Program-made: the position numbers and the translations under genes
UHGV virus genome: UHGV-1781188
DNA length: 20,865 nucleotides
Strand: one strand, 5' to 3'
Source: a virus
Shown here: positions 1,149-15,165 of the stretch, in pieces
Position numbering within the stretch: position 1 is the first letter of the stretch
How the letters are laid out: each line of letters begins with the position of its first letter
Notes under the pieces: model-generated
Databases searched by the model: none
What the model saw: the letters and a program-made list of their open reading frames with translations, nothing else
What the model was told of the DNA's origin: nothing

Positions 1149-1166
1149 TTTCTTAACTAAACTATC

Positions 1167-1980: not shown

Positions 1981-1996
1981 GCTTTTATATTATGTC
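1845..1996. repeat. 18-bp perfect inverted repeat pair flanking the iteron cluster
   Basis: GACATAATATAAAAGCAG at 1845-1862 and its exact reverse complement CTGCTTTTATATTATGTC at 1979-1996. Confidence 0.7.
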
Positions 1997-2013
1997 ATAG
2001 AAACACCCGAAGG

Positions 2014-2030
2014 GGTGACCAAAGGTCACC
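2014..2030. repeat. perfect palindrome GGTGACC-AAA-GGTCACC
   Basis: 7-bp arms, 3-bp spacer; flanked by cccgaagggg. Confidence 0.6.
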
Positions 2031-2072
2031 TGGCATAGCCAGCGAAAGATTATTAACTTGCTAATCGTTATC

Positions 2073-2092
2073 ATGCAAACGAATGGCATGGC
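2073..2092. repeat. 20-bp direct repeat, copy 2 (ATGCAAACGAATGGCATGGC)
   Basis: identical to 1812-1831; followed by TTATAAT. Confidence 0.7.
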
Positions 2093-2183
2093 TTATAATT
2101 TTTGAGCAAATAGTCTATACGTGAACAGTGAGGCATGCAATAGTAACAATTGTTATTGTATCCAGTGTGTTGAGTATGCCCAG

Positions 2184-2221
2184 TGTGTCACTATTATGTC
2201 ATATTATGTCACAGTATGTCA
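2184..2221. repeat. four helically phased short repeats (TGTGTCA, then TATGTCA x3 at 10-bp period)
   Basis: TGTGTCA 2184-2190; TATGTCA at 2195, 2205, 2215; TGACATA (reverse) also at 1936-1942 and TATGTCA at 1991-1997. Confidence 0.6.
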
Positions 2222-3536
2222 GACAAGTTTTCCTCCTCTTTGTCAAGTGCTGCATGAAAAATTTACAAACTGGTATGGTAGCATTTTTGCGGCCCTGTTT
2301 ACATTCAGTAATGTATGTATAATCCTTGTTGTGTGGGCGTTTAGACGTCTAGACGGTCAGAAGTCCGCAGGTCAATAACTAATCTATCGGCTGCTAACTA
2401 TATCCCACACAAATAGTAAGAAATATAATTGTTATGTGTGTAAACAGTAACTCATGTTATCAATCCCTGTATGGATCGCCAGTGGTGCGCATAATGGGTA
2501 TTATGTTAAATTGCCCGTAATGATAACAGTTCTCACAATGATAGGTATTCTCATTCACCCCCACAAGATAGGTTGCAAATGTTGTGCCACTGTGTGAACG
2601 GCCTCACCTATTAATTTGCCTCACTGCCTCGATATTTGAGAATTGTTATAAGAATGAGAAGTATTCCCATTTCGTCCGCCTGGCAGCACTCCAGTCGCTA
2701 CCGGCTCCTGACAGGGAGGCACTCCTGTCGGTCAGGTCAAAATCATGGTATAACTGGACCTGTTCAGATATTTCTGGCTGGCTCTTCAGGTCTGTGTGGG
2801 AAAAGCCAACCTCTCAGGCGGGGCAGGGGGGTCATGACGGGAAAATTGCAGGTCAATTAAAAAATTTACGTGGTGTATGAAGCGCTCTTCAGGTAAGGCA
2901 TGTATTATGGGATGAAACCCTCTTCAGGCAATGATATTTGTGGGTGTGATATTTGCTGGAAAGCCAGATATGACGGGACTCCCGGCTGGGCAGGGGTAGT
3001 ACAGACAGGGGAAATATGGAGGATGTAGTTGGGTGAGTTGATCAGACAGGTTGGGTATAGATATGTTACAAGTATGTTAAATATGGAGGGTGAATATCTG
3101 TAGGATTTATGTGTAAAATCAAAGACTTAAGTGGTGTTGTGGTATTTTCTATAAATAATTCAAGTTTAATAGGTAATATTTGTCTCTGTCCGCTTTGTGT
3201 GGTAAGCAAATTCAGATGGTGTTGGTTTACAAGTGTATACATAATATACAAATTAAAGATACAAGAAACCCCCCTCCCCCTTCGGCTACCATTCACCTTT
3301 TCCTCTGACTGGTACTTAAACACTTATTCAGACTCTTCAGGTTATCACCCATATATCATATGGCAGTGACTGGTGTCCTCCGGCCCCTCTTTCGTCACCC
3401 GTCCGCTTCGCCATGCTAATGCCATAGCCAATGGTTCGGTTGTTCACCCTGTTCACTCAGGTGTATCTCCATACCCCTTCAAACCGAAGAGAACAGAAAA
3501 CCCGAATTACTCGGTAAAAGAAAAGAGAAGAACTTA

Positions 3537-3564
3537 ATTTTATCAGGATAGGCAAGAATGTCAA
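3537..3564 (-). promoter_or_regulatory. sigma70-like promoter directed into the non-coding region
   Basis: minus strand TTGACA (3564-3559), 16-bp spacer, TAAAAT (3542-3537); no convincing CDS downstream. Confidence 0.4.
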
Positions 3565-3691
3565 GGCATGACTGCTCACTAAACAAGCAAACAGTCATGT
3601 GTGGGAGGTAAGTGATTGTGGTGGTAGGAAATTTAGTTGAAAGATGTGTTATAGGTGCTTCCAGCACTTTAGCCGGGCAGCTAATTGTGTG

Positions 3692-3907
3692 TCAGTCCAG
3701 CGGTTCATCCTCTACTTCACTGAAATCAATGTTCATGGTCTCTTCCCAACCATCGATCTCAGCACAAGAGTGGAGTTCTTTAGGGTTTACTCCCAAAGCC
3801 TCAGCAACAGAGTCTATATTTAACACCTCTGGCAGGTATGATTCATCGAATTCAAGGTAAATCAGGCCACGAGTGTTGTCAGCTCCACCAAATATCTCTA
3901 TCTTCAT
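3692..3907 (-). CDS. small acidic protein (71 aa), MKIEI-type N-terminus
   Basis: ATG with SD agaggaga upstream; acidic C-terminus; N-terminus resembles other MK(I/V)(E/K)I genes in the block. Confidence 0.6.
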   Translation of the reverse strand: MKIEIFGGADNTRGLIYLEFDESYLPEVLNIDSVAEALGVNPKELHSCAEIDGWEETMNIDFSEVEDEPLD

Positions 3908-4026
3908 AAAATCTCCTCTGGGAATGAGAGTGTGAACAGGATTATACGTCCAAATGCGCAGGAATTATGCACGTTTGCCTCTTCAGGCCATGCTTTAGCA
4001 TGAGGAACCTGTGTGGGCTCGGTGCT

Positions 4027-4239
4027 TCATAGTCTACCACCTCTGAACTCTTCGTGCTCAGGCATAATAGAGAACCAGATATCTACGATGTCCTCCCACG
4101 TCAGGTCATCAGCCTCAGGATCTGTCTGGGACGAAGATGAAGAGTCCTCAGAATCTAAGTTTTCCTCTTTAACTGGCTCATCCAAGGGACATATGGTCAC
4201 TCCTTCGGATGTCTCTTCAGATGCATGTGTGTTGATCAT
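4027..4239 (-). CDS. highly acidic Ser/Asp/Glu-rich protein (70 aa)
   Basis: internal ATG of track ORF 4027-4440; ATGA overlap with the upstream small peptide; about 20 D/E versus 3 K/R. Confidence 0.5.
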   Translation of the reverse strand: MINTHASEETSEGVTICPLDEPVKEENLDSEDSSSSSQTDPEADDLTWEDIVDIWFSIMPEHEEFRGGRL

Positions 4240-4337
4240 GTTCCACCTGTGAGTATTCCGGCAACAGCCGCTATGGACGTAATGATCATCAGGATCACCA
4301 CTAAAACTTCGGACAATGTTCTCATAGTGTATTCCAT
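4236..4337 (-). CDS. small hydrophobic peptide (33 aa, one predicted TM helix)
   Basis: MEYTMRTLSEVLVVILMIITSIAAVAGILTGGT; SD ggaga 5 nt upstream; promoter 4358-4386 just upstream; stop overlaps the next start (ATGA). Confidence 0.45.
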   Translation of the reverse strand: MEYTMRTLSEVLVVILMIITSIAAVAGILTGGT

Positions 4338-4357
4338 ATTCTCCAAATGATGTGTGG

Positions 4358-4386
4358 ATATTATCACTGGAGCTGTAATGTGTCAA
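4358..4386 (-). promoter_or_regulatory. sigma70-type promoter
   Basis: minus strand TTGACA (4386-4381), 17-bp spacer, TAATAT (4363-4358). Confidence 0.55.
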
Positions 4387-4555
4387 TAGAAACGCCGCGA
4401 GGGTTTGGTTAAAATCCGAGCGTATGGTGATTTGGGTCAAAACGGACGTGCGTTCTCGCTACGCTCGAAATATGGAGTTGTTTGTAGGAAGCTCTTAAAC
4501 GCTCTGTAACGAGATTATCTGTCCAAGGTATGCAATCGTGCACCAGACAAAGAAA

Positions 4556-4575
4556 AGGACGCCACAGAGCGTCCT
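4556..4575 (-). terminator. rho-independent terminator
   Basis: aggacgc / gcgtcct stem, 6-nt loop; on the minus strand followed by ttttctttg; directly after CDS 4600-4899. Confidence 0.6.
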
Positions 4576-4599
4576 AGGTGTCTTAAATTTGATATTTTG

Positions 4600-4899
4600 C
4601 TATACCCATGAGGGCTTATCAAGGTTGGAGTAGCTAAAAGGTGTCAAAAGGTGACTGTCAAAATCTCTCAAACTATCCAAATCTTTTTCCTCGTCCTGAC
4701 ACCATCTGTGCCTACATTTATTGTTGTAGTGCATAGAATGCATAGCGTTCTGCAACTTAACAGGCACAAGTGATTCAGGAGTAGTTAGTATTGTTGGGTA
4801 TGCCAGAACCACCTCAAACAGTGGAAACACATCGAAACTAAAGTCTACCTCTGCAGAGGTTGATGGCATGTAGGAGTATTTAGCCGCCTTTGTAGACAT
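4600..4899 (-). CDS. hypothetical protein (99 aa)
   Basis: start moved to MSTKAAKY (SD gaggtgg upstream), which overlaps the stop of the upstream gene. Confidence 0.55.
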   Translation of the reverse strand: MSTKAAKYSYMPSTSAEVDFSFDVFPLFEVVLAYPTILTTPESLVPVKLQNAMHSMHYNNKCRHRWCQDEEKDLDSLRDFDSHLLTPFSYSNLDKPSWV

Positions 4900-4907
4900 A
4901 ATCCACC

Positions 4908-5240
4908 TCACACAGGTTTGATAATACCTTTACCGAATAACTCTTCGTATCTAATCTTGTCCGGATCCCACTCCTGGATAATTTCGAAGACAATATCCAA
5001 CCCGGGAACAATCACTTCTCCAGTGTCAAGCTTAGCAAGAACAAAACCGGAAGGTTGAATGGTTTCCCAGTTACGGCGATCAGAATAAAATACTTCGAAA
5101 ATATCGCCAACCTCAATCCGTTTCTGTTGCTCAAGATGCTCAAGGTTCTCTTTCATACGGATGCAGCGTATTTTTCGTGCAGGCCATAGACCACCTGCAT
5201 CACGTTCATTCAATTCTTTTACAGTGATCGGTATACCCAT
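4908..5240 (-). CDS. hypothetical protein (110 aa)
   Basis: start moved to MGIPITVKE (SD ggaggaga 6 nt upstream); the track start lies inside the terminator hairpin. Confidence 0.6.
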   Translation of the reverse strand: MGIPITVKELNERDAGGLWPARKIRCIRMKENLEHLEQQKRIEVGDIFEVFYSDRRNWETIQPSGFVLAKLDTGEVIVPGLDIVFEIIQEWDPDKIRYEELFGKGIIKPV

Positions 5241-5265
5241 CTCAAATCTCCTCCATAGATAGTAA

Positions 5266-5291
5266 AAAGAGGGGCCCAAGCCCCCCTCTTT
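5266..5291 (-). terminator. rho-independent terminator (possibly bidirectional)
   Basis: aaagaggggc / gcccccctcttt hairpin; on the minus strand followed by TTTTT; directly after CDS 5296-5601. Confidence 0.6.
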
Positions 5292-5295
5292 GTCA

Positions 5296-5601
5296 TTATT
5301 CTACAGAGCGTTTGAACAGAATGTCTGCCTCGGACATGTGCTCAACCTCTTCTTCGATTTTAGCTCGACGTTTTTCAGCCTCATAGCGAATATCAAACTC
5401 GGTAGCAACCAGAGATTTGATGAATTTAGGAGAATACAGGTGATCCTGCTTCTCAACGAGAATGATATCCTTAATGGCATCTTTCAGATCTTTAATCTGA
5501 AGTTGGAGTTCCACCAGTTCTTCGATTGTTTTGCGAAGGCGATCACGCTCTGCAGTGTCAGAAGGAAGAGAGGTGAACAGTTCAACTTTAGATTTAGCCA
5601 T
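5296..5601 (-). CDS. hypothetical charged coiled-coil protein (101 aa)
   Basis: ATG with SD aaggaga upstream; heptad-like charged sequence. Confidence 0.7.
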   Translation of the reverse strand: MAKSKVELFTSLPSDTAERDRLRKTIEELVELQLQIKDLKDAIKDIILVEKQDHLYSPKFIKSLVATEFDIRYEAEKRRAKIEEEVEHMSEADILFKRSVE

Positions 5602-5629
5602 AGTAAGAGTCTCCTTATGTTGTTTTAAA

Positions 5630-5881
5630 TTAACGTTCTACAAAAATACCGTTCAGTTCAATAACCAGGAATTTCTGGTCTTCACTATCGTCACGAGCCA
5701 GCACCTCACAGACGTAACGGTCATCTCCGTCATCATCACAGTCAAATACAAGACTGAGGACTTTATCATGATAAACCTTCGCCACTACCGCCTCGTAAGT
5801 ATTGCCGATTGTGAATCCAAGATAATCTCCAATGCATTTGACAACAACATGATCACCAGCATTCAAGTCAATCTTCGTCAT
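5630..5881 (-). CDS. hypothetical protein (83 aa)
   Basis: start moved to MTKIDLNAG (SD aaggagcg upstream); contains a DDDGDD acidic patch. Confidence 0.65.
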   Translation of the reverse strand: MTKIDLNAGDHVVVKCIGDYLGFTIGNTYEAVVAKVYHDKVLSLVFDCDDDGDDRYVCEVLARDDSEDQKFLVIELNGIFVER

Positions 5882-5984
5882 TACTGCGCTCCTTGGGTAA
5901 TAATACTGTATGTAAAACTTTAACCAGAGATGTGAATAACGCCCCAAAACACACCGATAGCGCTAAAACAGACAAGGCCATCAT
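5868..5984 (-). CDS. small hydrophobic peptide (38 aa)
   Basis: MMALSVLALSVCFGALFTSLVKVLHTVLLPKERSNDED; its stop overlaps the start region of the next gene; weak SD. Confidence 0.35.
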   Translation of the reverse strand: MMALSVLALSVCFGALFTSLVKVLHTVLLPKERSNDED

Positions 5985-6036
5985 TAAAGCTTCAGTAAAA
6001 TCAGTCACCCCTCACCTCTTGTTAGTCACTATACTG

Positions 6037-6300
6037 TCATTTATCCTTGCCGTCAAGAACTTTTTTAAATCTTTCAGGGATATCGCCTGTTCTTAGATAG
6101 CTCATGACCTCACAAGGTTCCCACTTAAATTTCTTACAAAGCAGGGCGGCTGAGATTGTTTCATTGCGAAAAGAAAGGATATTAATATCCCATTCTGAGA
6201 ACCCCAACTTCCGAAGGGTAGCTACAGAAATCCTCACCGCAACCCAGCAGCAAAAACATGCAACAAACGCCACTGCTATAACCCACATCAGGATGTTCAT
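6037..6300 (-). CDS. membrane protein (87 aa), N-terminal TM helix
   Basis: MNILMWVIAVAFVACFCCWVAV hydrophobic N-terminus; SD gaggtg upstream. Confidence 0.6.
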   Translation of the reverse strand: MNILMWVIAVAFVACFCCWVAVRISVATLRKLGFSEWDINILSFRNETISAALLCKKFKWEPCEVMSYLRTGDIPERFKKVLDGKDK

Positions 6301-6309
6301 ACAAGCACC

Positions 6310-6393
6310 TCACTGAAATACAAGACACAGTGTTAAGGTTACTGACCAGCAAATAATTAACAGTGCCGTTGCAACCTTGGCAAGATTTATCAT
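6310..6393 (-). CDS. small hydrophobic peptide (27 aa)
   Basis: MINLAKVATALLIICWSVTLTLCLVFQ; ATGA overlap with the stop of CDS 6390-6677; SD agaggc upstream. Confidence 0.4.
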   Translation of the reverse strand: MINLAKVATALLIICWSVTLTLCLVFQ

Positions 6394-6677
6394 AGTGCCT
6401 CTAAGATTTCATATCCTTCGGGTCGGAATACAAGCCACTCCGTGGCTCCGTTTGGTCGATACGCTTTATACAGAACAACCTGATCTCGGCACATGCACAT
6501 AGCTACATAGTTTTCATCCACACCTGCAGCCTGCATTGCAGCTTCTTCTCCGGCAACTGCTTTGCTTACAACCTCCTTGGTAGGCAGGTGTGCGATCAGC
6601 TCGTCACCATCATTAATTCCAAAATGACTGAGTTCTCCATTGGTATCTTTAATCTTAATCTTAACCAGATCTTTCAT
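6390..6677 (-). CDS. hypothetical protein (95 aa)
   Basis: TAATG overlap with the upstream gene. Confidence 0.7.
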   Translation of the reverse strand: MKDLVKIKIKDTNGELSHFGINDGDELIAHLPTKEVVSKAVAGEEAAMQAAGVDENYVAMCMCRDQVVLYKAYRPNGATEWLVFRPEGYEILEAL

Positions 6678-7006
6678 TAGTCTTCCTCCAGGTTCAAAGG
6701 CCCTAAGATTTCATATGCCAGATTAGAAGTTACCAGAGGGTCTTCTGCATCTTTAGTATTGTACCACCCGTGAATAACCAGAGTCCCACTTTGTTTCATG
6801 TCCAACTGGAACTCTTCTGCCGTTTCCTCATCCAGCTCCAAGATTTCCATGAGGTATTTGATGTTAGGAAGGTATGCAGCTGTTACAGTTCCCTCCACCA
6901 AACCTTCGGGCCAACCTACATCCGGATGACAAGTAGGAACCAAGTTGGTCAACTTAATGGTGTACGCTTTTTCTGCACGAGCCTTCAGTAACGGGTCAAT
7001 CTTCAT
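6677..7006 (-). CDS. hypothetical acidic protein (109 aa)
   Basis: TAATG overlap with the upstream gene; acidic C-terminus. Confidence 0.7.
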   Translation of the reverse strand: MKIDPLLKARAEKAYTIKLTNLVPTCHPDVGWPEGLVEGTVTAAYLPNIKYLMEILELDEETAEEFQLDMKQSGTLVIHGWYNTKDAEDPLVTSNLAYEILGPLNLEED

Positions 7007-7356
7007 TATTCGTCCTCCTCTTCGGTGCCTGCTTCCAGTAATAAGTTAAGAATATCTTCTGCACAAGGCTCATAGAACTCTTGGCCTTCATTATCGATGA
7101 TTTTGTAGTCATCTCCACGAATAATCAGTGGATCACTCTCAAAATTATCGAGACCTTTAACAACGACAACACGATCGATTGCCATCATTGTAAGAACTTT
7201 ATCGACATCTTCCTCTGCTACACCATACTGCAGCAGAATGTCTTTGGTAGGAGGAACAGCATCCACCACAACGCCGTTACCAAAACCTTCTGGAAGTTTA
7301 GCTAAAATATCTTCCGGAACCACATTCACATCAAAACCGGTAATTTCTACTTTCAT
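7006..7356 (-). CDS. small acidic protein (116 aa), related to family B
   Basis: MKVEITG N-terminus; shares a hydrophobic V-V-V-K-G core with 7357-7614 and 8781-9050; poly-acidic tail EAGTEEEDE. Confidence 0.7.
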   Translation of the reverse strand: MKVEITGFDVNVVPEDILAKLPEGFGNGVVVDAVPPTKDILLQYGVAEEDVDKVLTMMAIDRVVVVKGLDNFESDPLIIRGDDYKIIDNEGQEFYEPCAEDILNLLLEAGTEEEDE

Positions 7357-7614
7357 TTACAGCACCTCTTCGTCAACTACTTCATAAAAATGGCCTGGGA
7401 TTGCAATAGCGTTCTCACCTTCACCTACAAACACAGTTCCGTCAAGAATCAACATCATAAGAATGTCTGGAATATCCTCTTCCGGAACGTTGCCAAAACT
7501 TTTAATCAGTTTGTAGGTTGGAAGATTTACCTCTAAGATGTCACCATCTTTAGAACGGAAATCTACACCGTCCTGAATCTCTGCCGTTTCAAGGTTTTTC
7601 AATTTAATCTTCAT
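7357..7614 (-). CDS. small acidic protein (85 aa), paralog family B
   Basis: start at ATG 7614 (SD aggaga 7 nt upstream; track start 7617 is TTG); aligns with 8781-9050 at both termini. Confidence 0.7.
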   Translation of the reverse strand: MKIKLKNLETAEIQDGVDFRSKDGDILEVNLPTYKLIKSFGNVPEEDIPDILMMLILDGTVFVGEGENAIAIPGHFYEVVDEEVL

Positions 7615-7646
7615 CAATCAGTCTCCTGTCTTGTTAAGATGAAGGT

Positions 7647-7675
7647 ATTATTTCACACAGGGTTGGTGTTGTCAA
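7647..7675 (-). promoter_or_regulatory. sigma70-like promoter (weak -10)
   Basis: minus strand TTGACA (7675-7670), about 17-bp spacer, AATAAT. Confidence 0.35.
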
Positions 7676-7693
7676 CACCTGTGTGCAAGAAAA

Positions 7694-8089
7694 TTACTGA
7701 AACAGTGCGGATAAATTACCTTCTGGTGGGAACTTATCTGCCAAAAACGGTGTTAGCACAGTAGCCTTCTGAAGATCTGGGGTCCACTCGTTGTTCAGAA
7801 CATCCCAGTAGTACGCAATGTTACTGTGTGGGTGCCGCATTACGAACTTTTTCCATTCGTAGTCATCTGAAACCTCTACAGAAGAAATAACAACAGAATC
7901 TTCAAGGGTTTCTTCATAGAAAGATCCGCCTTCAAATTTCCAACGAGATGCAAGAGCCCCTGCCTTGAACGCTGCAGATAACGGACTGTCGGCAAGAACA
8001 TACATTTCTTGCACTCTGTCGCTGCGATCTTTGCTTCTTACGTTGTACACAGTATCTGAGCTATACTCAACACGGTATAGGCTTACCAT
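7694..8089 (-). CDS. hypothetical protein (131 aa), paralog family C
   Basis: SD gaggaggt upstream; shares an HP(D/H)S..YW...W.TP..L.. segment with 9896-10294. Confidence 0.7.
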   Translation of the reverse strand: MVSLYRVEYSSDTVYNVRSKDRSDRVQEMYVLADSPLSAAFKAGALASRWKFEGGSFYEETLEDSVVISSVEVSDDYEWKKFVMRHPHSNIAYYWDVLNNEWTPDLQKATVLTPFLADKFPPEGNLSALFQ

Positions 8090-8421
8090 TACCGCACCTC
8101 CTCAATAACTTCCACATCTGAACCCACCACAAATGCAAAAGGACAGGTTTCATGAAAGACATCCGGATCGCCGCCAAGCTTGCTAACAATTTCTCCACCA
8201 CTAATAAACACAAGCTCACCGATATTCATCAGATTGCTGAAATAGTATCCATAATGATTAAAGAATGCAGCAGGGTCAGGTAGACTAGTAGCCTCAAGTT
8301 CTACATCGGTTGAGATTACTTTCTTATCATAACCTCTCGCCTTCTGAGATGCAAGATCTGCAGAATCTTCAGGCGACCGGAGATGCACAGGAATTGTTTC
8401 ACCAATAAAGCGTACTTTCAT
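8089..8421 (-). CDS. small protein (110 aa), paralog family A
   Basis: start moved to MKVRFIG (SD ggtga upstream); shares LVF(I/V).G...L..G and VGSD.E.(I/V)EE with other family A members. Confidence 0.65.
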   Translation of the reverse strand: MKVRFIGETIPVHLRSPEDSADLASQKARGYDKKVISTDVELEATSLPDPAAFFNHYGYYFSNLMNIGELVFISGGEIVSKLGGDPDVFHETCPFAFVVGSDVEVIEEVR

Positions 8422-8425
8422 ATTA

Positions 8426-8689
8426 TCACCCAACAACCATAGCTTCAAAAGGGGTCATGAACGAATAAACGGCATCATCATCTGCTTCAGGGAATGCTCC
8501 CAAAGACTTCATGTCTGAGCCTTTGACAAATACAAGGTTTTGATCAAAAGCTTCTTGGGGGTCAATCCGATACATATTTCGTAGAATATCGCCTACCTCC
8601 TCATCAAGAGGTGAGTATGCTGTGCACGTTTTTCCGATCAAGCTTTGAGAATCAGGGTATCCACCTGAAGTTTTAAAATAAACAATCAT
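8426..8689 (-). CDS. small protein (87 aa), paralog family A
   Basis: GYPDSQSLIGK and LVFVKGSDMKSLGA match the family A core. Confidence 0.65.
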   Translation of the reverse strand: MIVYFKTSGGYPDSQSLIGKTCTAYSPLDEEVGDILRNMYRIDPQEAFDQNLVFVKGSDMKSLGAFPEADDDAVYSFMTPFEAMVVG

Positions 8690-8744
8690 ATAGTATCACC
8701 TATGGTAAGAGATTGGGATTCCTTTCCCACAAATAATTACAAAC

Positions 8745-8761
8745 CTTCCTTGTCGAGGAAG
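8745..8761 (-). terminator. short hairpin followed by a U-rich tract (weak terminator candidate)
   Basis: cttcct / aggaag 6-bp stem; on the minus strand followed by gtttgtaattatttg; downstream of CDS 8781-9050. Confidence 0.3.
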
Positions 8762-8780
8762 TATGCTAATCCAAGCAGGA

Positions 8781-9050
8781 TTATTCCTCTACAATCTCAT
8801 ACACATCCGGAGTTACAATCAACTCTTCTCCGTTACCTGGTGCAACAAACACCACCATTCCTTCAGGTGTGTGCTTTTTAGCCATCTCGATAACATCTTC
8901 TCGCAGAGCTGGCTCCATCAGATCAAAACCTTCACCCAGGGCATCACGAACCACCTTCATATAGTCAACTGGTTGTGCTTCGACAATCATGCCTTCAACC
9001 AGTCCACAGTTTTTGTCTGCCAGCTCAGTTTTGAATAATTTAATTTTCAT
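8781..9050 (-). CDS. small acidic protein (89 aa), paralog family B
   Basis: MKIKLFKTEL N-terminus and ...YEIVEE C-terminus parallel 7357-7614; SD gaggaga upstream. Confidence 0.7.
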   Translation of the reverse strand: MKIKLFKTELADKNCGLVEGMIVEAQPVDYMKVVRDALGEGFDLMEPALREDVIEMAKKHTPEGMVVFVAPGNGEELIVTPDVYEIVEE

Positions 9051-9076
9051 TTAGAGGTCTCCTCAATTATTTGATA

Positions 9077-9178
9077 TTAATAGCCGTAACCTAACACATT
9101 AACTACAACTGCGATTGCAAACATAATTTCAAAGCATGCAATCTCTACATTTGGGACTAGTTTCTTAATCACGCCCAT
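9077..9178 (-). CDS. small hydrophobic peptide (33 aa)
   Basis: MGVIKKLVPNVEIACFEIMFAIAVVVNVLGYGY; SD gaggtg upstream, overlapping the stop of the HPF-like gene. Confidence 0.4.
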   Translation of the reverse strand: MGVIKKLVPNVEIACFEIMFAIAVVVNVLGYGY

Positions 9179-9187
9179 TGTAGCACC

Positions 9188-9505
9188 TCATTCTCCAAAG
9201 TCAATCTTTACTTTGCCTTTCCCCTTACCTTTCTTTCCACCGCATTTAGCCAGCTGACGTGCTGCAACATCTACCATACGGTCAGTTGCCTCGTAAGCAT
9301 CACCACCTTTAGCCTTGGCAATAACTTCTTTTCCAGAATTGTCAAAAATGAGCGCCATAACTTCCTGGTGATCATTTTCAACTTTTACACTCACACGTGC
9401 ATAGTTGGCAGAGGGGTGCAAACGCTCCAGCTTAGACATTTTGTGGGAAATGAAAGACACCATACCTTCAGTGATTTCTACGTTGCCAGTGATTTCAATT
9501 TGCAT
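9188..9505 (-). CDS. hpf: ribosome hibernation promoting factor-like protein (HPF/RaiA/YfiA family) with Gly/Lys-rich tail
   Basis: N-terminus MQIEITGNVEITEGM and the segment KAKGGDAYEATDRMVDVAARQLAK match hallmark HPF/RaiA motifs as I remember the E. coli proteins (N-terminal ITG..(M/V)EIT and C-terminal D.Y.AI..L...L.RQL); SD aaagga upstream. Confidence 0.8.
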   Translation of the reverse strand: MQIEITGNVEITEGMVSFISHKMSKLERLHPSANYARVSVKVENDHQEVMALIFDNSGKEVIAKAKGGDAYEATDRMVDVAARQLAKCGGKKGKGKGKVKIDFGE

Positions 9506-9523
9506 AACGTGTTCCTTTTAAAG

Positions 9524-9544
9524 AAGAGGGAACCAAACCCTCTT
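9524..9544 (-). promoter_or_regulatory. hairpin in the leader of the HPF-like gene
   Basis: aagaggg / ccctctt 7-bp stem with a 7-nt loop, between promoter 9553-9581 and the hpf RBS. Confidence 0.35.
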
Positions 9545-9552
9545 TGAAAACA

Positions 9553-9581
9553 ATGATACTAAATCTGAAGCGTTGTGTCAA
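9553..9581 (-). promoter_or_regulatory. sigma70-type promoter upstream of the HPF-like gene
   Basis: minus strand TTGACA (9581-9576), 17-bp spacer, TATCAT (9558-9553). Confidence 0.5.
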
Positions 9582-9587
9582 CAGTTT

Positions 9588-9878
9588 TTACAGCTTGTTG
9601 TCGATAGTTTTTAAAATATCCACAGCAAGATCTGCCATTTTTCGAACATACTCTGCAAACTCAACAGGATCCTTGATCAAAGAATTCACAGGGTCGTACC
9701 CTAGAGCGTTTAAAATGGCTGCAGCATCTACAACCTTCTCATCATTTGCGAAGATCTCTCCGTCAAACTTGTAGGTCCATTTTGAGTCAACCTTAGCAGA
9801 GCAGGGTTTGTCCATGCTTGTTACACCATCGTCTTTAAACTCTCCTGCGTTATCAATATTTAGAATTAAATCCATCAT
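9588..9878 (-). CDS. hypothetical protein (96 aa)
   Basis: ATG-ATG start with SD gaggtg upstream. Confidence 0.65.
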   Translation of the reverse strand: MMDLILNIDNAGEFKDDGVTSMDKPCSAKVDSKWTYKFDGEIFANDEKVVDAAAILNALGYDPVNSLIKDPVEFAEYVRKMADLAVDILKTIDNKL

Positions 9879-9895
9879 GGTGACACCTCACTGTT

Positions 9896-10294
9896 TCAGT
9901 TTAGCTTTTCTTCAACAACCCCATAACTTGGGGCAGAGTCAAGAGCTTTCTGGTTTAAAAGTGGCGTAGCAGAATCTGCAAACGGTGTCCAAGTTTTTGT
10001 TCTGGCATTCCAGTAATGCTTCACTCTGGAATCTGGATGCACTATAACAAAAACTTTTTCACTTGTCAACACATTAATTTCTTCTACACCCTTGCTGATA
10101 ATTTCTCCGTCATAGCCCCCAGTCTGGTATCCTTCGTACCAGGTTCTTGCATAGGCATAGCCAGCCTGCCAGCATGCAGCCTCCTCCGAGGTGGAGACTA
10201 CGTAGAAGTCTTTCTCAAATTCTGGAATACGCCCTTGCTTTACGCTCCAAGCCCCGCGAATTTTCATTGTAACTTTAAACAGTTTATTTTTCAC
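9896..10294 (-). CDS. hypothetical protein (132 aa), paralog family C
   Basis: HPDSRVKHYWNARTKTWTPFADSATPLL aligns with 7694-8089; the track start is GTG and the true start is uncertain. Confidence 0.6.
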   Translation of the reverse strand: MKNKLFKVTMKIRGAWSVKQGRIPEFEKDFYVVSTSEEAACWQAGYAYARTWYEGYQTGGYDGEIISKGVEEINVLTSEKVFVIVHPDSRVKHYWNARTKTWTPFADSATPLLNQKALDSAPSYGVVEEKLN

Positions 10295-10306
10295 AACGGT
10301 TACCCA

Positions 10307-10561
10307 TCACAGCTCTACAATATCTGCATCTGACCCTACCCCAAAGGCATAATAGGACTCTTCCCCGAAATAGTATTCAGGTGCACCAGCGGTGATCAGG
10401 TCTGATCCCAAGATAAACACCACGTTGTGGCCTACATAGCTGTGATGTTGCCGCACAGGATCATCCCACGGCAACCCTTCAAAGTATACCGCAGGAACGA
10501 CCTTTCCCTTCAGGAAGGATTGTCCCAAGTAGATGTTAGAATCAAGAATTTTAACCTTCAT
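10307..10561 (-). CDS. small protein (84 aa), paralog family A
   Basis: MKVKILDSNIYLGQ...GSDLITAGAPE... closely parallels its neighbour 10551-10775; SD ggagga upstream. Confidence 0.7.
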   Translation of the reverse strand: MKVKILDSNIYLGQSFLKGKVVPAVYFEGLPWDDPVRQHHSYVGHNVVFILGSDLITAGAPEYYFGEESYYAFGVGSDADIVEL

Positions 10562-10775
10562 GATCGTCCTCCACTACCTCTACATCCTCGCCTAGGGCAA
10601 AGTTGTAGGTCCACTGACTGTCAAAGCAGTCCTGAGATGCACCAGCGGCAATAAGATCTGCCCCTTTTATTTTTAAAAGGTCAGGGTAATCTTCGTTAGG
10701 GACAGCAGTAAACACTTTTCCTACTAAAGGCTCCTGACCAATATAGAAGCTTGAATCTAAAACTTTAACTTTCAT
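10551..10775 (-). CDS. small acidic protein (74 aa), paralog family A
   Basis: start at ATG 10775 (ATGA overlap with upstream stop; track start 10778 is TTG); MKVKVLDSSFYIGQ...GADLIAAGASQ. Confidence 0.7.
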   Translation of the reverse strand: MKVKVLDSSFYIGQEPLVGKVFTAVPNEDYPDLLKIKGADLIAAGASQDCFDSQWTYNFALGEDVEVVEDDHEG

Positions 10776-11062
10776 CAACGGTCTCCATCAGGTGGTTGTG
10801 GGACGTAAACACTGTTACGAATATCGTCCGCAGTATAGTAATAAGTGTCTCCAACCCTATCTCTGGCTGCAATGTACTCTGCTATGCCAATAAGTGCCAT
10901 TGATTTGGTGGCGTATCTTCCCAACTCGTTAGCTCCCCAGTAGAATTTAGACCAATAGGGAATAAGACCGAACAAATATACCTTTTGACGAACTTCCCAG
11001 TAAGTGCCTTTCCCGACAAGTTTAAACTCGACTTCACCACTGTTAATCTTTTTCATTATCAA
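10775..11062 (-). CDS. hypothetical protein (95 aa)
   Basis: ATGA overlap with the upstream gene; Trp/Tyr-rich. Confidence 0.65.
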   Translation of the reverse strand: MIMKKINSGEVEFKLVGKGTYWEVRQKVYLFGLIPYWSKFYWGANELGRYATKSMALIGIAEYIAARDRVGDTYYYTADDIRNSVYVPQPPDGDR

Positions 11063-11355
11063 TCTCCCTCCACCGTGGTCGGATTGTCAGTAAGAAATTG
11101 AGCATTAGCTGGAGGCACACCTGACATTTTCCACACAACCATAAGTTTGTAACCAGGCACTCTATTAAGTGCAGATCGAGTAGAGTTTGTGCACGTATAT
11201 TTTCGCTTTCCAAACCCGTTCTCAAGCATGATCCAGTATCCCGTGTCTTTATCACCTGGAATTGGTAATCCCTCATCGTCCACCCATTGAATGGACCATG
11301 GCACGATGGCTACAGCTTTATATTTAAACTTTTTAAACCACTCAAAAAGTTTCAT
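11059..11355 (-). CDS. hypothetical protein (98 aa)
   Basis: SD gagg upstream; intact ORF. Confidence 0.65.
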   Translation of the reverse strand: MKLFEWFKKFKYKAVAIVPWSIQWVDDEGLPIPGDKDTGYWIMLENGFGKRKYTCTNSTRSALNRVPGYKLMVVWKMSGVPPANAQFLTDNPTTVEGD

Positions 11356-11358
11356 AAT

Positions 11359-11448
11359 TCAGCCTCGCATAGACATAATCACTATAAACAGGCAAACAAT
11401 GAATCCGAATGCCACGCCACCCATAAACGTTAATATTGATGCAATCAT
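11359..11448 (-). CDS. small hydrophobic peptide (29 aa)
   Basis: MIASILTFMGGVAFGFIVCLFIVIMSMRG; fills the gap between two genes; SD gagg inside the upstream gene end. Confidence 0.3.
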   Translation of the reverse strand: MIASILTFMGGVAFGFIVCLFIVIMSMRG

Positions 11449-11450
11449 AG

Positions 11451-11636
11451 TCAATCAGCCTCGCTTGGCAACTCTTCCACCTTAACATGCCGAAAAGTGT
11501 TACCGTAATGGTTGATCCATGACATCAGCTCACTTTCTTGCTCTTCCTCTGGGATGAACTCTCGAATACTGACAAGTTTTAAGAAAACCCAATCACAATC
11601 TGCACCCATTCTACCAGACAGACAATAGTGCTTCAT
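11451..11636 (-). CDS. hypothetical protein (61 aa)
   Basis: SD ggaggg 5 nt upstream of ATG. Confidence 0.55.
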   Translation of the reverse strand: MKHYCLSGRMGADCDWVFLKLVSIREFIPEEEQESELMSWINHYGNTFRHVKVEELPSEAD

Positions 11637-11655
11637 AAAAACCCTCCATCCTGGT

Positions 11656-11856
11656 TTAGAATACTGCCTCTTTTAATGATCCAAGGAGCAGCAGGTGTGA
11701 AATCTGATCCACATCCATGGTAGATTCAATCTCCTCTTTTTTGAAAGGTTCTCGGCAAAACAGTACTACATTTGGGTTTTCGCTACGCACTATATAATAC
11801 AGATCGTTCAAATCATTCTCATAGTAGGTATTAAATTTAAGAATTTTGTCACTCAT
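11656..11856 (-). CDS. hypothetical protein (66 aa)
   Basis: ATGA overlap with the upstream gene. Confidence 0.6.
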   Translation of the reverse strand: MSDKILKFNTYYENDLNDLYYIVRSENPNVVLFCREPFKKEEIESTMDVDQISHLLLLGSLKEAVF

Positions 11857-12140
11857 TTTCTAATCCTCTTCTTAGATTTTTGTGCAGAAACGCTTTCTGC
11901 AATACGAGACAGGCGTTCTTCTGAAGCTTTACCTACCCCAGGTTTCTTGAGCGGGTTATCTTTATGACCGCAATCCAATTGGATGCTAGATACCTCCCCA
12001 ACCTTGTAAGTCAATTCTAACAAAAGGTTGTCGTCCTTGTCAAATGTTTTTACGATAAATTTTTTATCGTTCTCCTGAACTTCATATCTGGTACCTGCAG
12101 TATACAGCATGGTGCCATCAGCATAGGATATCCAGATCAT
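11853..12140 (-). CDS. hypothetical protein (95 aa), basic C-terminus
   Basis: ATGA overlap with the upstream gene; C-terminal KSKKRIRK. Confidence 0.6.
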   Translation of the reverse strand: MIWISYADGTMLYTAGTRYEVQENDKKFIVKTFDKDDNLLLELTYKVGEVSSIQLDCGHKDNPLKKPGVGKASEERLSRIAESVSAQKSKKRIRK

Positions 12141-12484
12141 TGAGCCTCCTTTTGCTGCAACAGCATTAACTCTTTGTTAGAGATCTTTACTGCTGTTTTT
12201 ATTGTTCCATCTTCACGAAACCACGACCAGAACTCTACAGTGTCACCACTATCAAGTAAAGCATGCCCATGGTAAAAATCTTTGTCCTTAGACAGTTTCT
12301 CATCTATATCTGCATCAACACATTCGTGATCCATAGCATTTTGCCTGAACGCATCGGTTATGCCAATGCACGCCTTGCTCTCAAGACTGGTATATCCGAT
12401 ATCTTTTAATTCAGTTTCCCAAGTCCAGTACCCTATAAAAGCTAAAACAGCTACCCACAGTAATAACGTTTTAATCTTTGGCAT
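12137..12484 (-). CDS. secreted or membrane-anchored protein (115 aa)
   Basis: N-terminal MPKIKTLLLWVAVLAFIGYW hydrophobic segment (signal peptide or TM anchor); SD agaggtagagag upstream. Confidence 0.65.
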   Translation of the reverse strand: MPKIKTLLLWVAVLAFIGYWTWETELKDIGYTSLESKACIGITDAFRQNAMDHECVDADIDEKLSKDKDFYHGHALLDSGDTVEFWSWFREDGTIKTAVKISNKELMLLQQKEAQ

Positions 12485-12514
12485 TCTCTCTACCTCTTTC
12501 TTAGTTTATTTCAC

Positions 12515-12563
12515 TATGGCACATCCTTTGTGCCATATCTCAACTACTACTTAAATAGTAGTT
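12515..12563 (-). promoter_or_regulatory. two adjacent perfect hairpins / palindromes in the intergenic spacer
   Basis: TATGGCACA-tcctt-TGTGCCATA (12515-12537; 9-bp arms) and AACTACTA-cttaaa-TAGTAGTT (12542-12563; 8-bp arms, overlaps the stop of CDS 12547-13017). Confidence 0.5.
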
Positions 12564-13017
12564 CAAAATAGTGCAAAATTAACAGAAGTTGAACTACACC
12601 TAGTGCAACGGCGAGTATGTTAATCTTAGAATCGAAAAACTTCTTAACTTTTACTCTAAAAGGTTCCTTAATGTCCTTTACGATCCTATCTATAGATGAC
12701 CTCATATCTCTGATTACCATCCTGAACATTAAAGACGGATGCTCCCCCATCTCTGTAACGGAATCGAAAACATACTCTCTTCGGTCATAAGGGCCGCCAG
12801 CTCTGCGTATTAACCTCTCCACAGAGACCTCGAACGTCACACCTGTAACGTAATCATCTATAACAAGTCGTGACGGGTCTTTACCTTTACTATCAAGAGG
12901 TATCAAAGTTATCTTTCCAGATTTTGTTAAAATTTCCCCTTTTTCAAGCAAGGTGTACCAATGCTCTCTGCCAAGACTGTTGAGGCACGTTTTTACATAT
13001 TTAACAAACATCGTCAC
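12547..13017 (-). CDS. tail-anchored membrane protein (156 aa)
   Basis: C-terminal INILAVALGVVQLLLILHYFELLF hydrophobic helix; ATGA overlap with the upstream gene. Confidence 0.65.
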   Translation of the reverse strand: MTMFVKYVKTCLNSLGREHWYTLLEKGEILTKSGKITLIPLDSKGKDPSRLVIDDYVTGVTFEVSVERLIRRAGGPYDRREYVFDSVTEMGEHPSLMFRMVIRDMRSSIDRIVKDIKEPFRVKVKKFFDSKINILAVALGVVQLLLILHYFELLFK

Positions 13018-13199
13018 CCCTCATCGCACGTCTGATATAACCACTCTATAAAATCTTGATACCATTCGCCCTCTGAGCGCTCCGTAGGCCAATAATCTTC
13101 ACCCTCTCGTGCATTAAAATCTGAGTATTCAACTTTCCACTCCTTTACCAGCTCGTGGAGAAGGTTTTCAGCCTGCTCTAAAGATTTATTTTTTACCAT
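13014..13199 (-). CDS. hypothetical acidic protein (61 aa)
   Basis: start moved to MVKNKSL (SD aaggaga 6 nt upstream). Confidence 0.55.
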   Translation of the reverse strand: MVKNKSLEQAENLLHELVKEWKVEYSDFNAREGEDYWPTERSEGEWYQDFIEWLYQTCDEG

Positions 13200-13293
13200 T
13201 GCTGTCTCCTTTTTCAAGATAGTTATACATCAGAACTGCACCACCTAAGATGGCTACCAGTAACAATATCCCAGATAGCATCTCAATAAACAT
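13186..13293 (-). CDS. possible small hydrophobic peptide (35 aa)
   Basis: MFIEMLSGILLLVAILGGAVLMYNYLEKGDSNGKK; no clear SD; overlaps both neighbours. Confidence 0.25.
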   Translation of the reverse strand: MFIEMLSGILLLVAILGGAVLMYNYLEKGDSNGKK

Positions 13294-13435
13294 GGCTTGA
13301 AACACTGGAAGGTCTCCCTAAATTAACGCACCATTTTAAATACATGCTCTTTTCCCATAAAGGTGCCTGGCTAAGATCTGCGTAGAACGCAATCTCTTTA
13401 AGAACAGTATAGATAGTTTTAGGTGCGGTCTCCAT
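13283..13435 (-). CDS. hypothetical protein (50 aa)
   Basis: internal start METAPKT with SD aaggagag upstream; overlaps the end of 13419-13646. Confidence 0.4.
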   Translation of the reverse strand: METAPKTIYTVLKEIAFYADLSQAPLWEKSMYLKWCVNLGRPSSVSSHVY

Positions 13436-13646
13436 CCCTACTCTCCTTCCTGATATTCTTGTAGTAATCAACTAGGCACATTATTACGATGAAGATAACA
13501 ACAGGCCAAAAAGGTGCAGCAGTGATGATGGTGATAAAATCATCAAACTTCACCCTTCGTCTGGACACGATGCATACACCTGTCAAGAATACCGCTGTTA
13601 TAACGGACATTACCAGGTAACCTATTAGCACAACATTTATACTCAT
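13419..13646 (-). CDS. small membrane protein (75 aa, two predicted TM helices)
   Basis: two long hydrophobic stretches; SD agggagg upstream. Confidence 0.6.
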   Translation of the reverse strand: MSINVVLIGYLVMSVITAVFLTGVCIVSRRRVKFDDFITIITAAPFWPVVIFIVIMCLVDYYKNIRKESRDGDRT

Positions 13647-13676
13647 TGGTCCTCCCTTTGTAGGTTAAATTGTATA

Positions 13677-14201
13677 CTACAAATGGTCGCTGAGGGTGTC
13701 AAGAAAATTATCCCGTTCTTTCTCAGAGTTTTCATGTGTGTAGCTGAAAAACATATCGAGAATAACCTTATTGATATATTCCAGCTCCTCTGTGTTCAGA
13801 TGCTTAGCAGGATCTACAATGACATCCCAAATATCATACAGACCACACTCATGATACCCATAACGCCACTCAATTGTCAAGCTGAGCGGCAAATCTTTAC
13901 CTTCACAAACAACCTTCCATCTACATATGTTGGTATCTGGTCGTACCTGTGCACGGTACACCTGCACAAAATCCAATTTGAATTTGAGGTACTCGTCATA
14001 CAATTTAAGCACAAAGCTCTCGATTTGTGGAGACACTTTTGCAGCAAACTGTGCGTATTTGTACTTGCACTGGATGATCTTTCTGCGTTTTGCAGTTAAA
14101 TTTTTTGCCGCCAGTTGTTCTTCAGTGTATCTCCACCTACGATCAACAAACGCAACAGGGTCTTTGTCCCCATAGAGGTCTTCCCAGTTAATCAGAAGCA
14201 T
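13677..14201 (-). CDS. hypothetical protein (174 aa)
   Basis: start at ATG (MLLINWEDLY) with SD ggaggag upstream; the track start is GTG. Confidence 0.65.
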   Translation of the reverse strand: MLLINWEDLYGDKDPVAFVDRRWRYTEEQLAAKNLTAKRRKIIQCKYKYAQFAAKVSPQIESFVLKLYDEYLKFKLDFVQVYRAQVRPDTNICRWKVVCEGKDLPLSLTIEWRYGYHECGLYDIWDVIVDPAKHLNTEELEYINKVILDMFFSYTHENSEKERDNFLDTLSDHL

Positions 14202-14206
14202 ACCTG

Positions 14207-14440
14207 TCACTCCTCCACAACTTCAAGGCCTTTACCGCCTCGCTCTGGCAGATTACTTAAAGATAGGTAATACATATAATCAGGAGAGATCCTGCCAGAC
14301 TCTGCACCTGCAGCTAGTAAATCCTTCCCTTTAACCAGGACAACATTCTCGTTTGCAGATAGCCGTTTTGCTTCCACAATTTTACCAACACAGTCAACCA
14401 AGGAAGGGTACCCTAAATCTGTAAGAAATTTAACTTTCAT
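14207..14440 (-). CDS. small protein (77 aa), paralog family A
   Basis: MKVKFLTDLGYPSL...GKDLLAAGAESG...LEVVEE; SD aggaggt upstream. Confidence 0.7.
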   Translation of the reverse strand: MKVKFLTDLGYPSLVDCVGKIVEAKRLSANENVVLVKGKDLLAAGAESGRISPDYMYYLSLSNLPERGGKGLEVVEE

Positions 14441-14477
14441 GCTACCTCCTACCTACCGTCCCTGGTAAGATAAATTA

Positions 14478-14876
14478 TTACTGAACAGAGCGCGGTGCTG
14501 GGAAGGATAACTCTTCTAAAGAGAAGATTTCATTTCCTACCACCCAAGTTGCTGGGTCATCTGGATCAACAGGTTGGATAATCATTACCTCATCCGCCTC
14601 GCACACACGTTTCCCACCCATAGTAGCGTCAGCCACTAACATACGCGGCTCTTCAGAAATGCACAGGTAGCCACCTCGGCCCACTGTTCCTTCCACGGGA
14701 TCCTGCCCTTTGACCACAATGAATACCTTCTCTCCTGTGGAGATATTACTTTTCACACTAACAGTTTGACCAACTTTAGATGTACCGATCTTGGTGGCTT
14801 CAAACATTAAATCCCGAATTACTGTTGCATAGTTGCCGGACACTTTCTTACCTTCTTTAGTAATCTCAATCTTCAT
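14478..14876 (-). CDS. hypothetical protein (132 aa), MKIEIT-type N-terminus
   Basis: ATGA overlap with the upstream gene. Confidence 0.65.
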   Translation of the reverse strand: MKIEITKEGKKVSGNYATVIRDLMFEATKIGTSKVGQTVSVKSNISTGEKVFIVVKGQDPVEGTVGRGGYLCISEEPRMLVADATMGGKRVCEADEVMIIQPVDPDDPATWVVGNEIFSLEELSFPAPRSVQ

Positions 14877-15112
14877 AATCTAGGCTCCTTAAATGAATCT
14901 ATGTAATCAATTAAATCCCAAGCATCGCGATGGGCTGTCAGAGGGTATACTTCTCCGAGAGGGATCATAGCAATAAGTCTATCAAAAACCCAGTCTGGAC
15001 GCAACATTTTATGGTGATATTCCCACTCACCTTCCACAGATTTTTTCTGAGTGATCAGGATCTCTGTGTAGTGTTTCGCCTGTCTTGAGTAGATTGAAAA
15101 TGACTTGTACAT
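14873..15112 (-). CDS. hypothetical protein (79 aa)
   Basis: start moved to MYKSFSIY (SD aagaggggg 6 nt upstream). Confidence 0.55.
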   Translation of the reverse strand: MYKSFSIYSRQAKHYTEILITQKKSVEGEWEYHHKMLRPDWVFDRLIAMIPLGEVYPLTAHRDAWDLIDYIDSFKEPRL

Positions 15113-15136
15113 AAATGACCCCCTCTTGTTGAAAAC

Positions 15137-15165
15137 AACAATACACAACTACCAGGTTACTGTCA
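15137..15165 (-). promoter_or_regulatory. sigma70-like promoter
   Basis: minus strand TTGACA (15165-15160), 17-bp spacer, TATTGT (15142-15137); sits in the 3' end of the upstream gene. Confidence 0.35.

Follow-up and report, generated by a model that had tools for sequence, protein, structure and literature searches.

Three ancient families of small paralogous proteins in a Vequintavirus gene block, with a strain-specific requirement for some members on a clinical Escherichia coli isolate

The DNA considered here is a 20,865-nucleotide (nt) stretch of the virus genome UHGV-1781188 (the window), which represents the early region of a Vequintavirus, an rV5/FFH2-like coliphage; its early timing is suggested by sequence features. 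Every gene between positions 3692 and 20786 is carried on the minus strand, with genes for NrdD, NrdG, PhoH, a ClpP-like protease and a DNA methyltransferase lying upstream of a 4.4-kb array of small genes (6390-10775) that public records name merely 'hypothetical protein'. Twelve minus-strand genes of this block make up three ancient paralog families: A with five members, B with five and C with two. A preliminary description, made from the sequence alone, had put forward at least ten such genes in at least three families, which was borne out and slightly understated the total. Vequintavirus genomes (among them rV5 and FFH2) match the array at 99.3-99.6% identity, with 99.3% for FFH2, and of 121 such records, 117 cover at least 80% of it at 90% identity or more. 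All ORFs (open reading frames) listed in the preliminary description lie on the minus strand at the positions given there, and the same coding sequences are annotated in FFH2 and in Bas54 (Escherichia phage MaxBurger).

Genes are referred to below by their first coordinate, and all are on the minus strand. Family A comprises 14207..14440 (77 amino acids (aa); bas54_0166 in Bas54), an outlier 3.4 kb upstream of the main array; 10551..10775 (74 aa; bas54_0159), which has an 11-nt overlap with the next gene and stands in tandem with 10307..10561 (84 aa; bas54_0158); 8426..8689 (87 aa; bas54_0152); and the most divergent member, 8089..8421 (110 aa; bas54_0151). The last two are the first genes of an A-A-C cassette that is completed by a family C gene, 7694..8089 (131 aa; bas54_0150), whose start overlaps the stop of 8089. 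The second family C gene, 9896..10294, stands apart (132 aa, reduced to 123 aa when the Bas54 start is used; bas54_0157). Family B begins, in the direction of transcription, with 8781..9050 (89 aa; bas54_0153), which is separated from the other four. These lie in tandem as 7357..7614 (85 aa; bas54_0149), 7006..7356 (116 aa; bas54_0148; net charge -21), 6677..7006 (109 aa; bas54_0147) and 6390..6677 (95 aa; bas54_0146).

Relationships were assessed by all-against-all BLASTP and by Smith-Waterman alignment with shuffled controls, across 38 small proteins and 703 pairs. The strongest Smith-Waterman pairs were 10307 and 10551 (z = 24.6), 7694 and 9896 (z = 17.6), and 14207 and 10551 (z = 16.6). 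Moderate scores linked 7006 to 7357 (z 7.8), 8089 to both 10307 and 10551 (z about 8), and 8426 to both 14207 and 10307 (z about 6). A census of the complete 139-kb FFH2 genome (1876 six-frame open reading frames, ORFs) returned the same five A, five B and two C genes, all confined to one segment of approximately 8 kb, with none elsewhere. Window proteins match PHROGs profiles over their whole length (E 1e-32 to 1e-76), and all of these profiles are labelled 'unknown function'. That catalogue already places 10307, 10551 and 14207 together (phrog_5009), and likewise 7694 and 9896 (phrog_7379). In contrast to the grouping presented here, it links 8426 to phrog_5009 weakly and leaves 8089 unlinked to family A, while the five B genes are unlinked singletons (phrogs 12794, 12457, 12155, 12359 and 11868).

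Family A was examined with a hidden Markov model (HMM) built from distant members alone, with all Vequintavirus sequences excluded, and searched against the 303 six-frame ORFs of the window. The model recovered exactly 10551 (1.7e-24), 14207 (2e-20), 10307 (7.9e-16), 8426 (6.2e-8) and 8089 (3.3e-5), the next ORF having an E value of 0.9. This test is independent of the preliminary observation, and the five-member family proposed there is confirmed in full. The distant profile is matched over their full length by 10551, 14207, 10307 and 8426 (the last with an hhalign probability of 97.5%), and in the C-terminal half only by 8089, which is recovered genome-wide at E 2e-4. Residues Y11, G19-K20, G38, D40-L41, G45-A46 and Y57 (14207 numbering) are invariant or nearly so, and these motif residues are kept across 38 diverse sequences; the N-terminal half of 8089 is degenerate.

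Membership of family B had been suggested for 7357 and 8781, with 7006 as a likely relative. The family proved real but larger, as 6677 and 6390 had been missed, and the founding pair of 7357 and 8781 is weak when taken alone (z about 4, lost after multiple-test correction). Each gene was searched for with a profile of the other four. These leave-one-out profiles retrieved 7006 (E 3.5e-9), 7357 (3.5e-7), 6390 (1.1e-5), 8781 (3.6e-4) and 6677 (2.7e-3); the next ORF always had E > 1.9, and each real sequence scored above 302 composition-preserving shuffles of itself. Thus, family B has five members, the tandem four at 6390-7614 and 8781, and the suspected relative 7006 is its hub. An ortholog profile of each B gene also finds, as its best non-self match, another of the five. 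Profile cross-matches comparable to those of family B were absent among the acidic control genes 3692, 5630 and 9588.

Within the array but outside the three families lies 9188..9505, a homolog of the HPF/RaiA ribosome hibernation factor (Pfam PF02482, E 1.6e-12; bas54_0155), which is non-essential in Bas54 on K-12 (10.1101/2025.11.20.689424). Orthologs of 8781 in HMD-6 (locus L025 10726-10995) and in other GenBank records bear the label 'sigma 54 modulation factor'. An HPF identity for 8781 was rejected, as PF02482 was unmatched, with nothing at E <= 1, and the label is probably an annotation spill-over from the adjacent HPF gene.

The pairing of 7694 with 9896 as family C, as originally proposed, is upheld by reciprocal HMM matches (E 3-5e-9) and by hhalign, which assigns it a probability of 94%, in addition to the alignment score and shared phrog given above. 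Their common C-terminal motif, HP.S...YW....W.TP, was considered as a possible WW domain and rejected, the isolated C-terminal segments having no Pfam WW match at E <= 10. Between families, hhalign found no relation of C to B or to A. Profiles of A and B gave a match of 38% over 29 N-terminal columns, which was judged insufficient for a link by sequence; the connection between these two families relies instead on fold class.

Scans of all family members against Pfam, NCBIfam and PADLOC gave no match, in agreement with the earlier remark that no enzyme motif is recognisable, and none of the members matches a Pfam SH3 or KOW profile at E <= 1. Sequence-profile searches of the Protein Data Bank with families A, B and C returned chance matches only, including designed ankyrin repeats, which were discarded because they arise from an 'LL.AGAD'-like motif. 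The AlphaFold2 model of 14207 (family A; mean predicted local distance difference test score, pLDDT, 94.4) has the order beta1, short helix, beta2, beta3, helix (carrying the G.DL..AGA motif), beta4, beta5. The model of 7006 (family B; pLDDT 77.5, core 80-89) has the same strand order, with two additional helices between beta2 and beta3 and an acidic C-terminal helix. Both models form barrels of five strands whose topology agrees with that of solved SH3/KOW domains; the nearest fold class is that of the SH3/KOW small beta-barrels (the KOW domains of NusG or Spt5, uL24, OapB, and the C-terminal domain of PhnA). At the position of the inserted helices in 7006, two family A proteins also carry insertions, helical in 8426 and of 14 aa in 10307. 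On the evidence of one model per family, the ten genes of families A and B, which encode proteins of 74-116 aa, are assigned to a predicted class of single-domain, SH3/KOW-like small beta-barrels. Ocr/Arn-like DNA-mimic anti-restriction proteins, a fold for which structure prediction had been recommended, were thus rejected as a model for A and B. Foldseek searches against viral models matched only uncharacterised small proteins of diverse phages (RB49, Merlin, Sf20, SRT8 and VpV262), one of them labelled 'putative early protein'.

As had been observed at the outset, most of the proteins are acidic: the isoelectric point is 4.05-5.4 in 11 of the 12 (net charge -1 to -21), with 9896 neutral (about 7.8-7.95). 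Many neighbours outside the families are just as acidic. A shared MK(V/I)(K/E) start, described as common to most of them, is present in about seven or eight of the twelve and missing from the remainder. Translational coupling likewise applies to part of the array. Six junctions within it overlap or abut (-11 to +4 nt), among them the 4-nt gap between 8426 and 8089 and the 1-nt overlap between 8089 and 7694, while the others have gaps of 12-137 nt, several with sigma70-like promoter sites having a perfect TTGACA. Two family A genes overlap neighbours outside the families: the overlap is 4 nt between 14207 and gene 13677, downstream of it, and 1 nt between 10551 and gene 10775. At the junctions 14207/14210, 10775, 10551-10561, 8089, 7356/7357, 7006 and 6677, the GAG/GAA codons of an acidic C-terminus (...VVEE, ...EEEDE, ...LEED) also serve the next, overlapping gene as its Shine-Dalgarno sequence (GAGG/GGAGG). 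This dual coding may reinforce the shared '...EVVEE' ending and help to conserve acidic tails.

All twelve of the best sigma70-like promoter matches in 3500-15500 lie on the coding strand, which fits the early-region context envisaged earlier. Candidate minus-strand promoters include 7647..7675, in the interval preceding the four tandem B genes (TTGACA-17-AATAAT with a TG extension; 11 of 12 positions match), 9177..9204, before 8781 (10/12, TG extension), and 9553..9581, before the HPF gene (11/12). A terminator-like hairpin at 8745..8761 on the same strand falls between 8781 and the A-A-C cassette. The rV5 genome paper reported E. coli-consensus promoters genome-wide and placed this region in a transcription unit of genes 82-163, without mention of the paralogs (PMC3606486). 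Literature searches on these genes found nothing.

The families are old, and their members are stable. Paralogs are about 25-40% identical to one another and orthologs 80-100%, which implies that the duplications are ancient and that every copy has since persisted as a gene in its own right. Aya, HMD-6, FFH2 and Bas54 each carry the full set of twelve. Measured against the divergent Vequintavirus genomes Aya and HMD-6, the ratio of nonsynonymous to synonymous substitution rates (dN/dS) is 0.02-0.22 for all twelve, the same range as for PhoH, the ClpP-like protease and the methyltransferase. Purifying selection of this kind indicates that the ORFs encode real proteins. The old and stably kept copies argue against ongoing 'diversifying' evolution, so that the 'diversifying duplication' first proposed does not hold. 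A rapidly diversifying arsenal was rejected accordingly, since the compared relatives showed neither variable presence and absence nor elevated dN/dS.

Judged by sequence, family A is one part of a far broader, uncharacterised family of T4-like, lambdoid and other phages. Among 1.84 billion cluster representatives, HMMER identified 63 family A clusters, mostly of 65-85 aa and of the form MKVKLLNDGGY.G...V.GK...A...I.G.DLI.AGA....F....Y.F..G.E.EVIEE. None of the 63 has a Pfam domain; a few hold two or three domain copies per chain, and one is fused to DUF3310. Two giant PKD-repeat proteins among the matches (P0059 and P0086) were set aside as repeat-inflated false positives. A tblastn search of phages with the family A consensus gave no match, and searches with distant members found 'hypothetical proteins' in the T4-like Moonvirus and Krischvirus and in phages of Proteus, Morganella, Salmonella and Klebsiella. 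The closest relative outside the genus is present once in a lambdoid E. coli prophage, flanked by the Q antiterminator and holin genes in a classic moron slot. More distant relatives occur in small-gene arrays adjoining RecT and a C5-methylase, a primase-polymerase, PolA, or RepO and RdgC, and tandem copies (two to three) occur in three unrelated contigs. One further protein, P0014 (70 aa), is an in-frame chimera of the N-terminal ~47 aa of 10551 and the C-terminal ~23 aa of 10307, two tandem paralogs having been collapsed into one by unequal recombination; exchange between the tandem copies thus occurs. The chimera derives from metagenomic Vequintavirus contigs of up to 133 kb and matches window 10307-10775.

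Phenotypes for these genes were taken from published data by rereading Extended Data Table 8 of the preprint 10.1101/2025.11.20.689424 for the orthologs. That study applied HIDEN-SEQ, a form of transposon-insertion sequencing, to Bas54, a Vequintavirus (10.1101/2025.11.20.689424) whose orthologs are 94-100% identical in amino-acid sequence to the window proteins; it does not discuss the paralog genes. On E. coli K-12, insertions were tolerated in all twelve, of which nine were classed as 'Non-essential' (TA saturation 0.81-1.0) and bas54_0151, 0152 and 0153 as 'Intermediate' (0.69-0.73) (10.1101/2025.11.20.689424). On the uropathogenic isolate CFE311, relative to K-12, mean reads in the cassette genes fell to 0, from 142 for bas54_0152, 71 for 0151 and 108 for 0150 (log2 fold change -7.2, -6.2 and -6.8, respectively; q = 0), the strongest depletions among genes 0080-0227 (10.1101/2025.11.20.689424). 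The second family C gene, bas54_0157, fell from 256 to 57 (log2 fold change -2.14, q = 0) with both neighbours unchanged, and bas54_0153 changed without significance (-2.78); the four tandem B genes, HPF, 0158, 0159 and 0166 were unchanged (10.1101/2025.11.20.689424). As 7694 is the last gene of its unit, its depletion is not a polar effect on a downstream member. The effects on 7694 and on the separately placed 9896 are thus gene-specific, and both C paralogs matter on CFE311. In all, these published data establish a requirement on this host for at least two and as many as four of the twelve, namely the genes of the 8426-8089-7694 cassette and 9896.

The same preprint validated two Bas54 genes, bas54_0063 and bas54_0140, as needed against DS-28, a predicted defence system of CFE311 (10.1101/2025.11.20.689424). 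The ortholog of bas54_0140 is 4600..4911 on the minus strand (98% identity), approximately 1.5 kb downstream of the array in the same gene block. It resembles the paralogs in being a small protein of unassigned function from this early block, non-essential on K-12 and depleted on CFE311. It differs in lying outside families A, B and C, with neither a Pfam or PADLOC match nor a cross-match to any family HMM, and in having a target validated by the authors.

Together, these observations suggest, with a probability of roughly 60%, that the paralogs are accessory early proteins with host-specific roles, probably non-enzymatic binders of strain-specific host proteins; that the bound proteins belong to defence systems is less certain. 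Host sigma70 RNA polymerase would read the genes as short, translationally coupled early operons, in which the acidic C-terminal codons of one gene would supply the Shine-Dalgarno sequence of the next. Each gene, although dispensable on K-12, would be kept by purifying selection because it is useful on particular hosts; on CFE311, a requirement is seen for 9896 as well as for the coupled 8426(A)-8089(A)-7694(C) cassette. The paralogs may act by binding strain-specific host proteins stoichiometrically, whether components of a defence system or of another barrier, and so neutralise them, with different paralogs perhaps aimed at different targets. The host-interaction or anti-defence role proposed in the preliminary description therefore gains experimental support for the two to four genes required on CFE311, but not for family B and three of the A genes, which have no phenotype in either host tested.

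Several points weigh against this interpretation. No significant phenotype in either host is associated with eight of the genes, namely the whole of family B plus 10307, 10551 and 14207, and the two upstream hits in the cassette, 8426 and 8089, could be polar on 7694, since bas54_0152, 0151 and 0150 are coupled. Unlike most classic anti-defence islands, the block is conserved, not variable, across the genus. The link between A and B consists of structure and a weak N-terminal profile match. The requirement was seen on the whole strain CFE311, not on an isogenic defence construct, and could stem from surface structures, physiology or prophage exclusion instead of immunity. Finally, the supplement sheet S6 ('resampling_K-12_vs_CFE303') is identical to S7 and carries the CFE311 command and numbers, apparently through a copy error, so that a single clinical host, CFE311, could be assessed.

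The question of polarity leads to a narrower account, possible though doubtful, in which only family C matters on CFE311, 8426 and 8089 score through their effect on 7694, and the roles of A and B are so far unobserved. It concerns which genes act, and is compatible with the strain-specific binder model. The tight coupling of the three cassette genes speaks for it, as does the fact that both C paralogs are hit independently, in contrast to every B gene and to the three A members that lie outside the cassette. However, the HIDEN-SEQ authors consider polarity uncommon and describe insertions placed upstream of essential genes as mostly tolerated, while allowing for locus-specific effects (10.1101/2025.11.20.689424). 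Moreover, 8781, directly upstream, is depleted only weakly and without significance, as expected for a separate unit, and the K-12 TA saturation of 8089 and 8426 is already reduced (0.71-0.73), which hints at effects of their own. Rather unlikely, in our estimate, is that the CFE311 requirement reflects adaptation to something other than defence, such as O-antigen or capsule biosynthesis, exclusion by a resident prophage, or a metabolic difference. The contrast was indeed made between whole strains, and many unannotated genes and, according to the paper, tail-fibre genes are also depleted on CFE311 (10.1101/2025.11.20.689424). Yet the proteins are small and cytoplasmic, without signal peptides or enzyme domains, a validated anti-defence gene lies nearby, and prophage exclusion is itself a form of defence.

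A role in general host takeover is less probable still. Under this account, the KOW/SH3-like proteins and the HPF/RaiA homolog would act on ribosomes or on transcription-translation coupling for example by mimicry of the KOW domain of NusG or uL24, and would reprogram any E. coli host rather than counter strain-specific immunity. The notion that the similarities are chance or compositional, arising from acidity, MK starts and Glu codons that encode Shine-Dalgarno sequences, or that the ORFs are not real, is refuted. It could draw on the shared C-terminal E-V-V-E-E motif, which is partly the Shine-Dalgarno sequence of the next gene, and on several B pairs that are individually non-significant. 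Against it stand the independent HMM that recovers family A, the leave-one-out profiles and composition-matched shuffles that support family B, the lack of cross-matches among the acidic neighbours 3692, 5630 and 9588, the low dN/dS, the confident AlphaFold2 models and the transposon-sequencing phenotypes. The families therefore hold in the alignments against shuffled controls and in the HMM comparisons for which the preliminary description had called, and purifying selection disposes of the idea that they are not translated.

The strain-specific binder model can be taken further, although this extension is improbable on present evidence: the A/B beta-barrel superfamily would be a reusable phage 'binder scaffold', each conserved paralog would disable a different host barrier specific to certain strains, the A-A-C cassette and 9896 would form a new multi-component counter-defence against a CFE311 system, and the wider family A (about 60 clusters) would be anti-defence. 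If so, the wider family A would represent a widespread and unrecognised anti-defence family.

Arrays of early genes that are small, largely non-essential and preceded by host-type promoters, some of the genes acting on host proteins, are familiar from the early small ORFs of T4, T5's pre-early genes and the host-takeover module of SPO1. To our knowledge, none of these modules has a sequence relationship to the window families. The window differs from them in that ten of its genes are predicted to share one fold class and that the block is conserved genus-wide. What was already known is that the sequences are catalogued in PHROGs as being of unknown function, and that arrays of small dispensable early genes are familiar in large lytic phages. 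The delimitation of the families (notably the five-member B), the predicted SH3/KOW-like fold class, the wide spread of family A, and the link to a phenotype that its authors did not follow up are new.

These results have practical relevance, as rV5-like phages are broad-host-range candidates for therapy and biocontrol in which approximately two thirds of genes are unannotated. A 4.4-kb stretch of 'hypothetical proteins' resolves into three defined families, with a predicted fold class for ten genes. In addition, a three-gene cassette and one further paralog decide growth on a clinical uropathogenic strain, and provide four cloneable candidates for host-range or counter-defence genes.

Some features of the surrounding DNA can also be recorded. 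The variable part of the block is 11059-13646, between the outlier A copy 14207 and the main array, in contrast to the conserved paralog array. HMD-6 shares only 51-67% identity with the window at 11656-11856, 13419-13646 and 13677-14210, and Aya only 64% at 11656-11856; Bas54 (locus L029 1567-2296) has a shorter set of small ORFs where the window has 11059-13646. Further upstream, an HNH homing-endonuclease insertion divides nrdD, which encodes the anaerobic ribonucleotide reductase, into two parts in FFH2 (ORF105a / ORF106 / ORF105b; FFH2 86.3-88.5 kb), and the downstream part of the gene corresponds to window 19542-20786.

At the other end of the gene block, approximately 2.5 kb (1149-3691) without a convincing ORF lies between divergently transcribed gene blocks. 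On its other flank, bas54_0123, 0126, 0127, 0132, 0133 and 0134 are depleted on CFE311 (log2 fold change -2.2 to -5.2, q < 0.05) (10.1101/2025.11.20.689424). The bas54_0123-0134 block consists of small unannotated genes and includes the plus-strand genes of the window at 23-1148. Because this run is also depleted, both flanks of the ORF-free region hold host-specific accessory genes. The region itself is 92-95% identical to the bas54_0134/bas54_0135 interval, where HIDEN-SEQ recovered zero transposon insertions, and Rfam and tRNA scans of 1149-3691 gave no match. In sequence it resembles an origin or control region. An AT-rich part lies around 1000-2000 (GC 0.35), direct and inverted copies of ATAGTTGCC(T/C)TG occur at 1796-1814, 1909-1927, 1945-1959 and 1970-1987, and an exact 20-nt repeat is found at 1812 and 2073.

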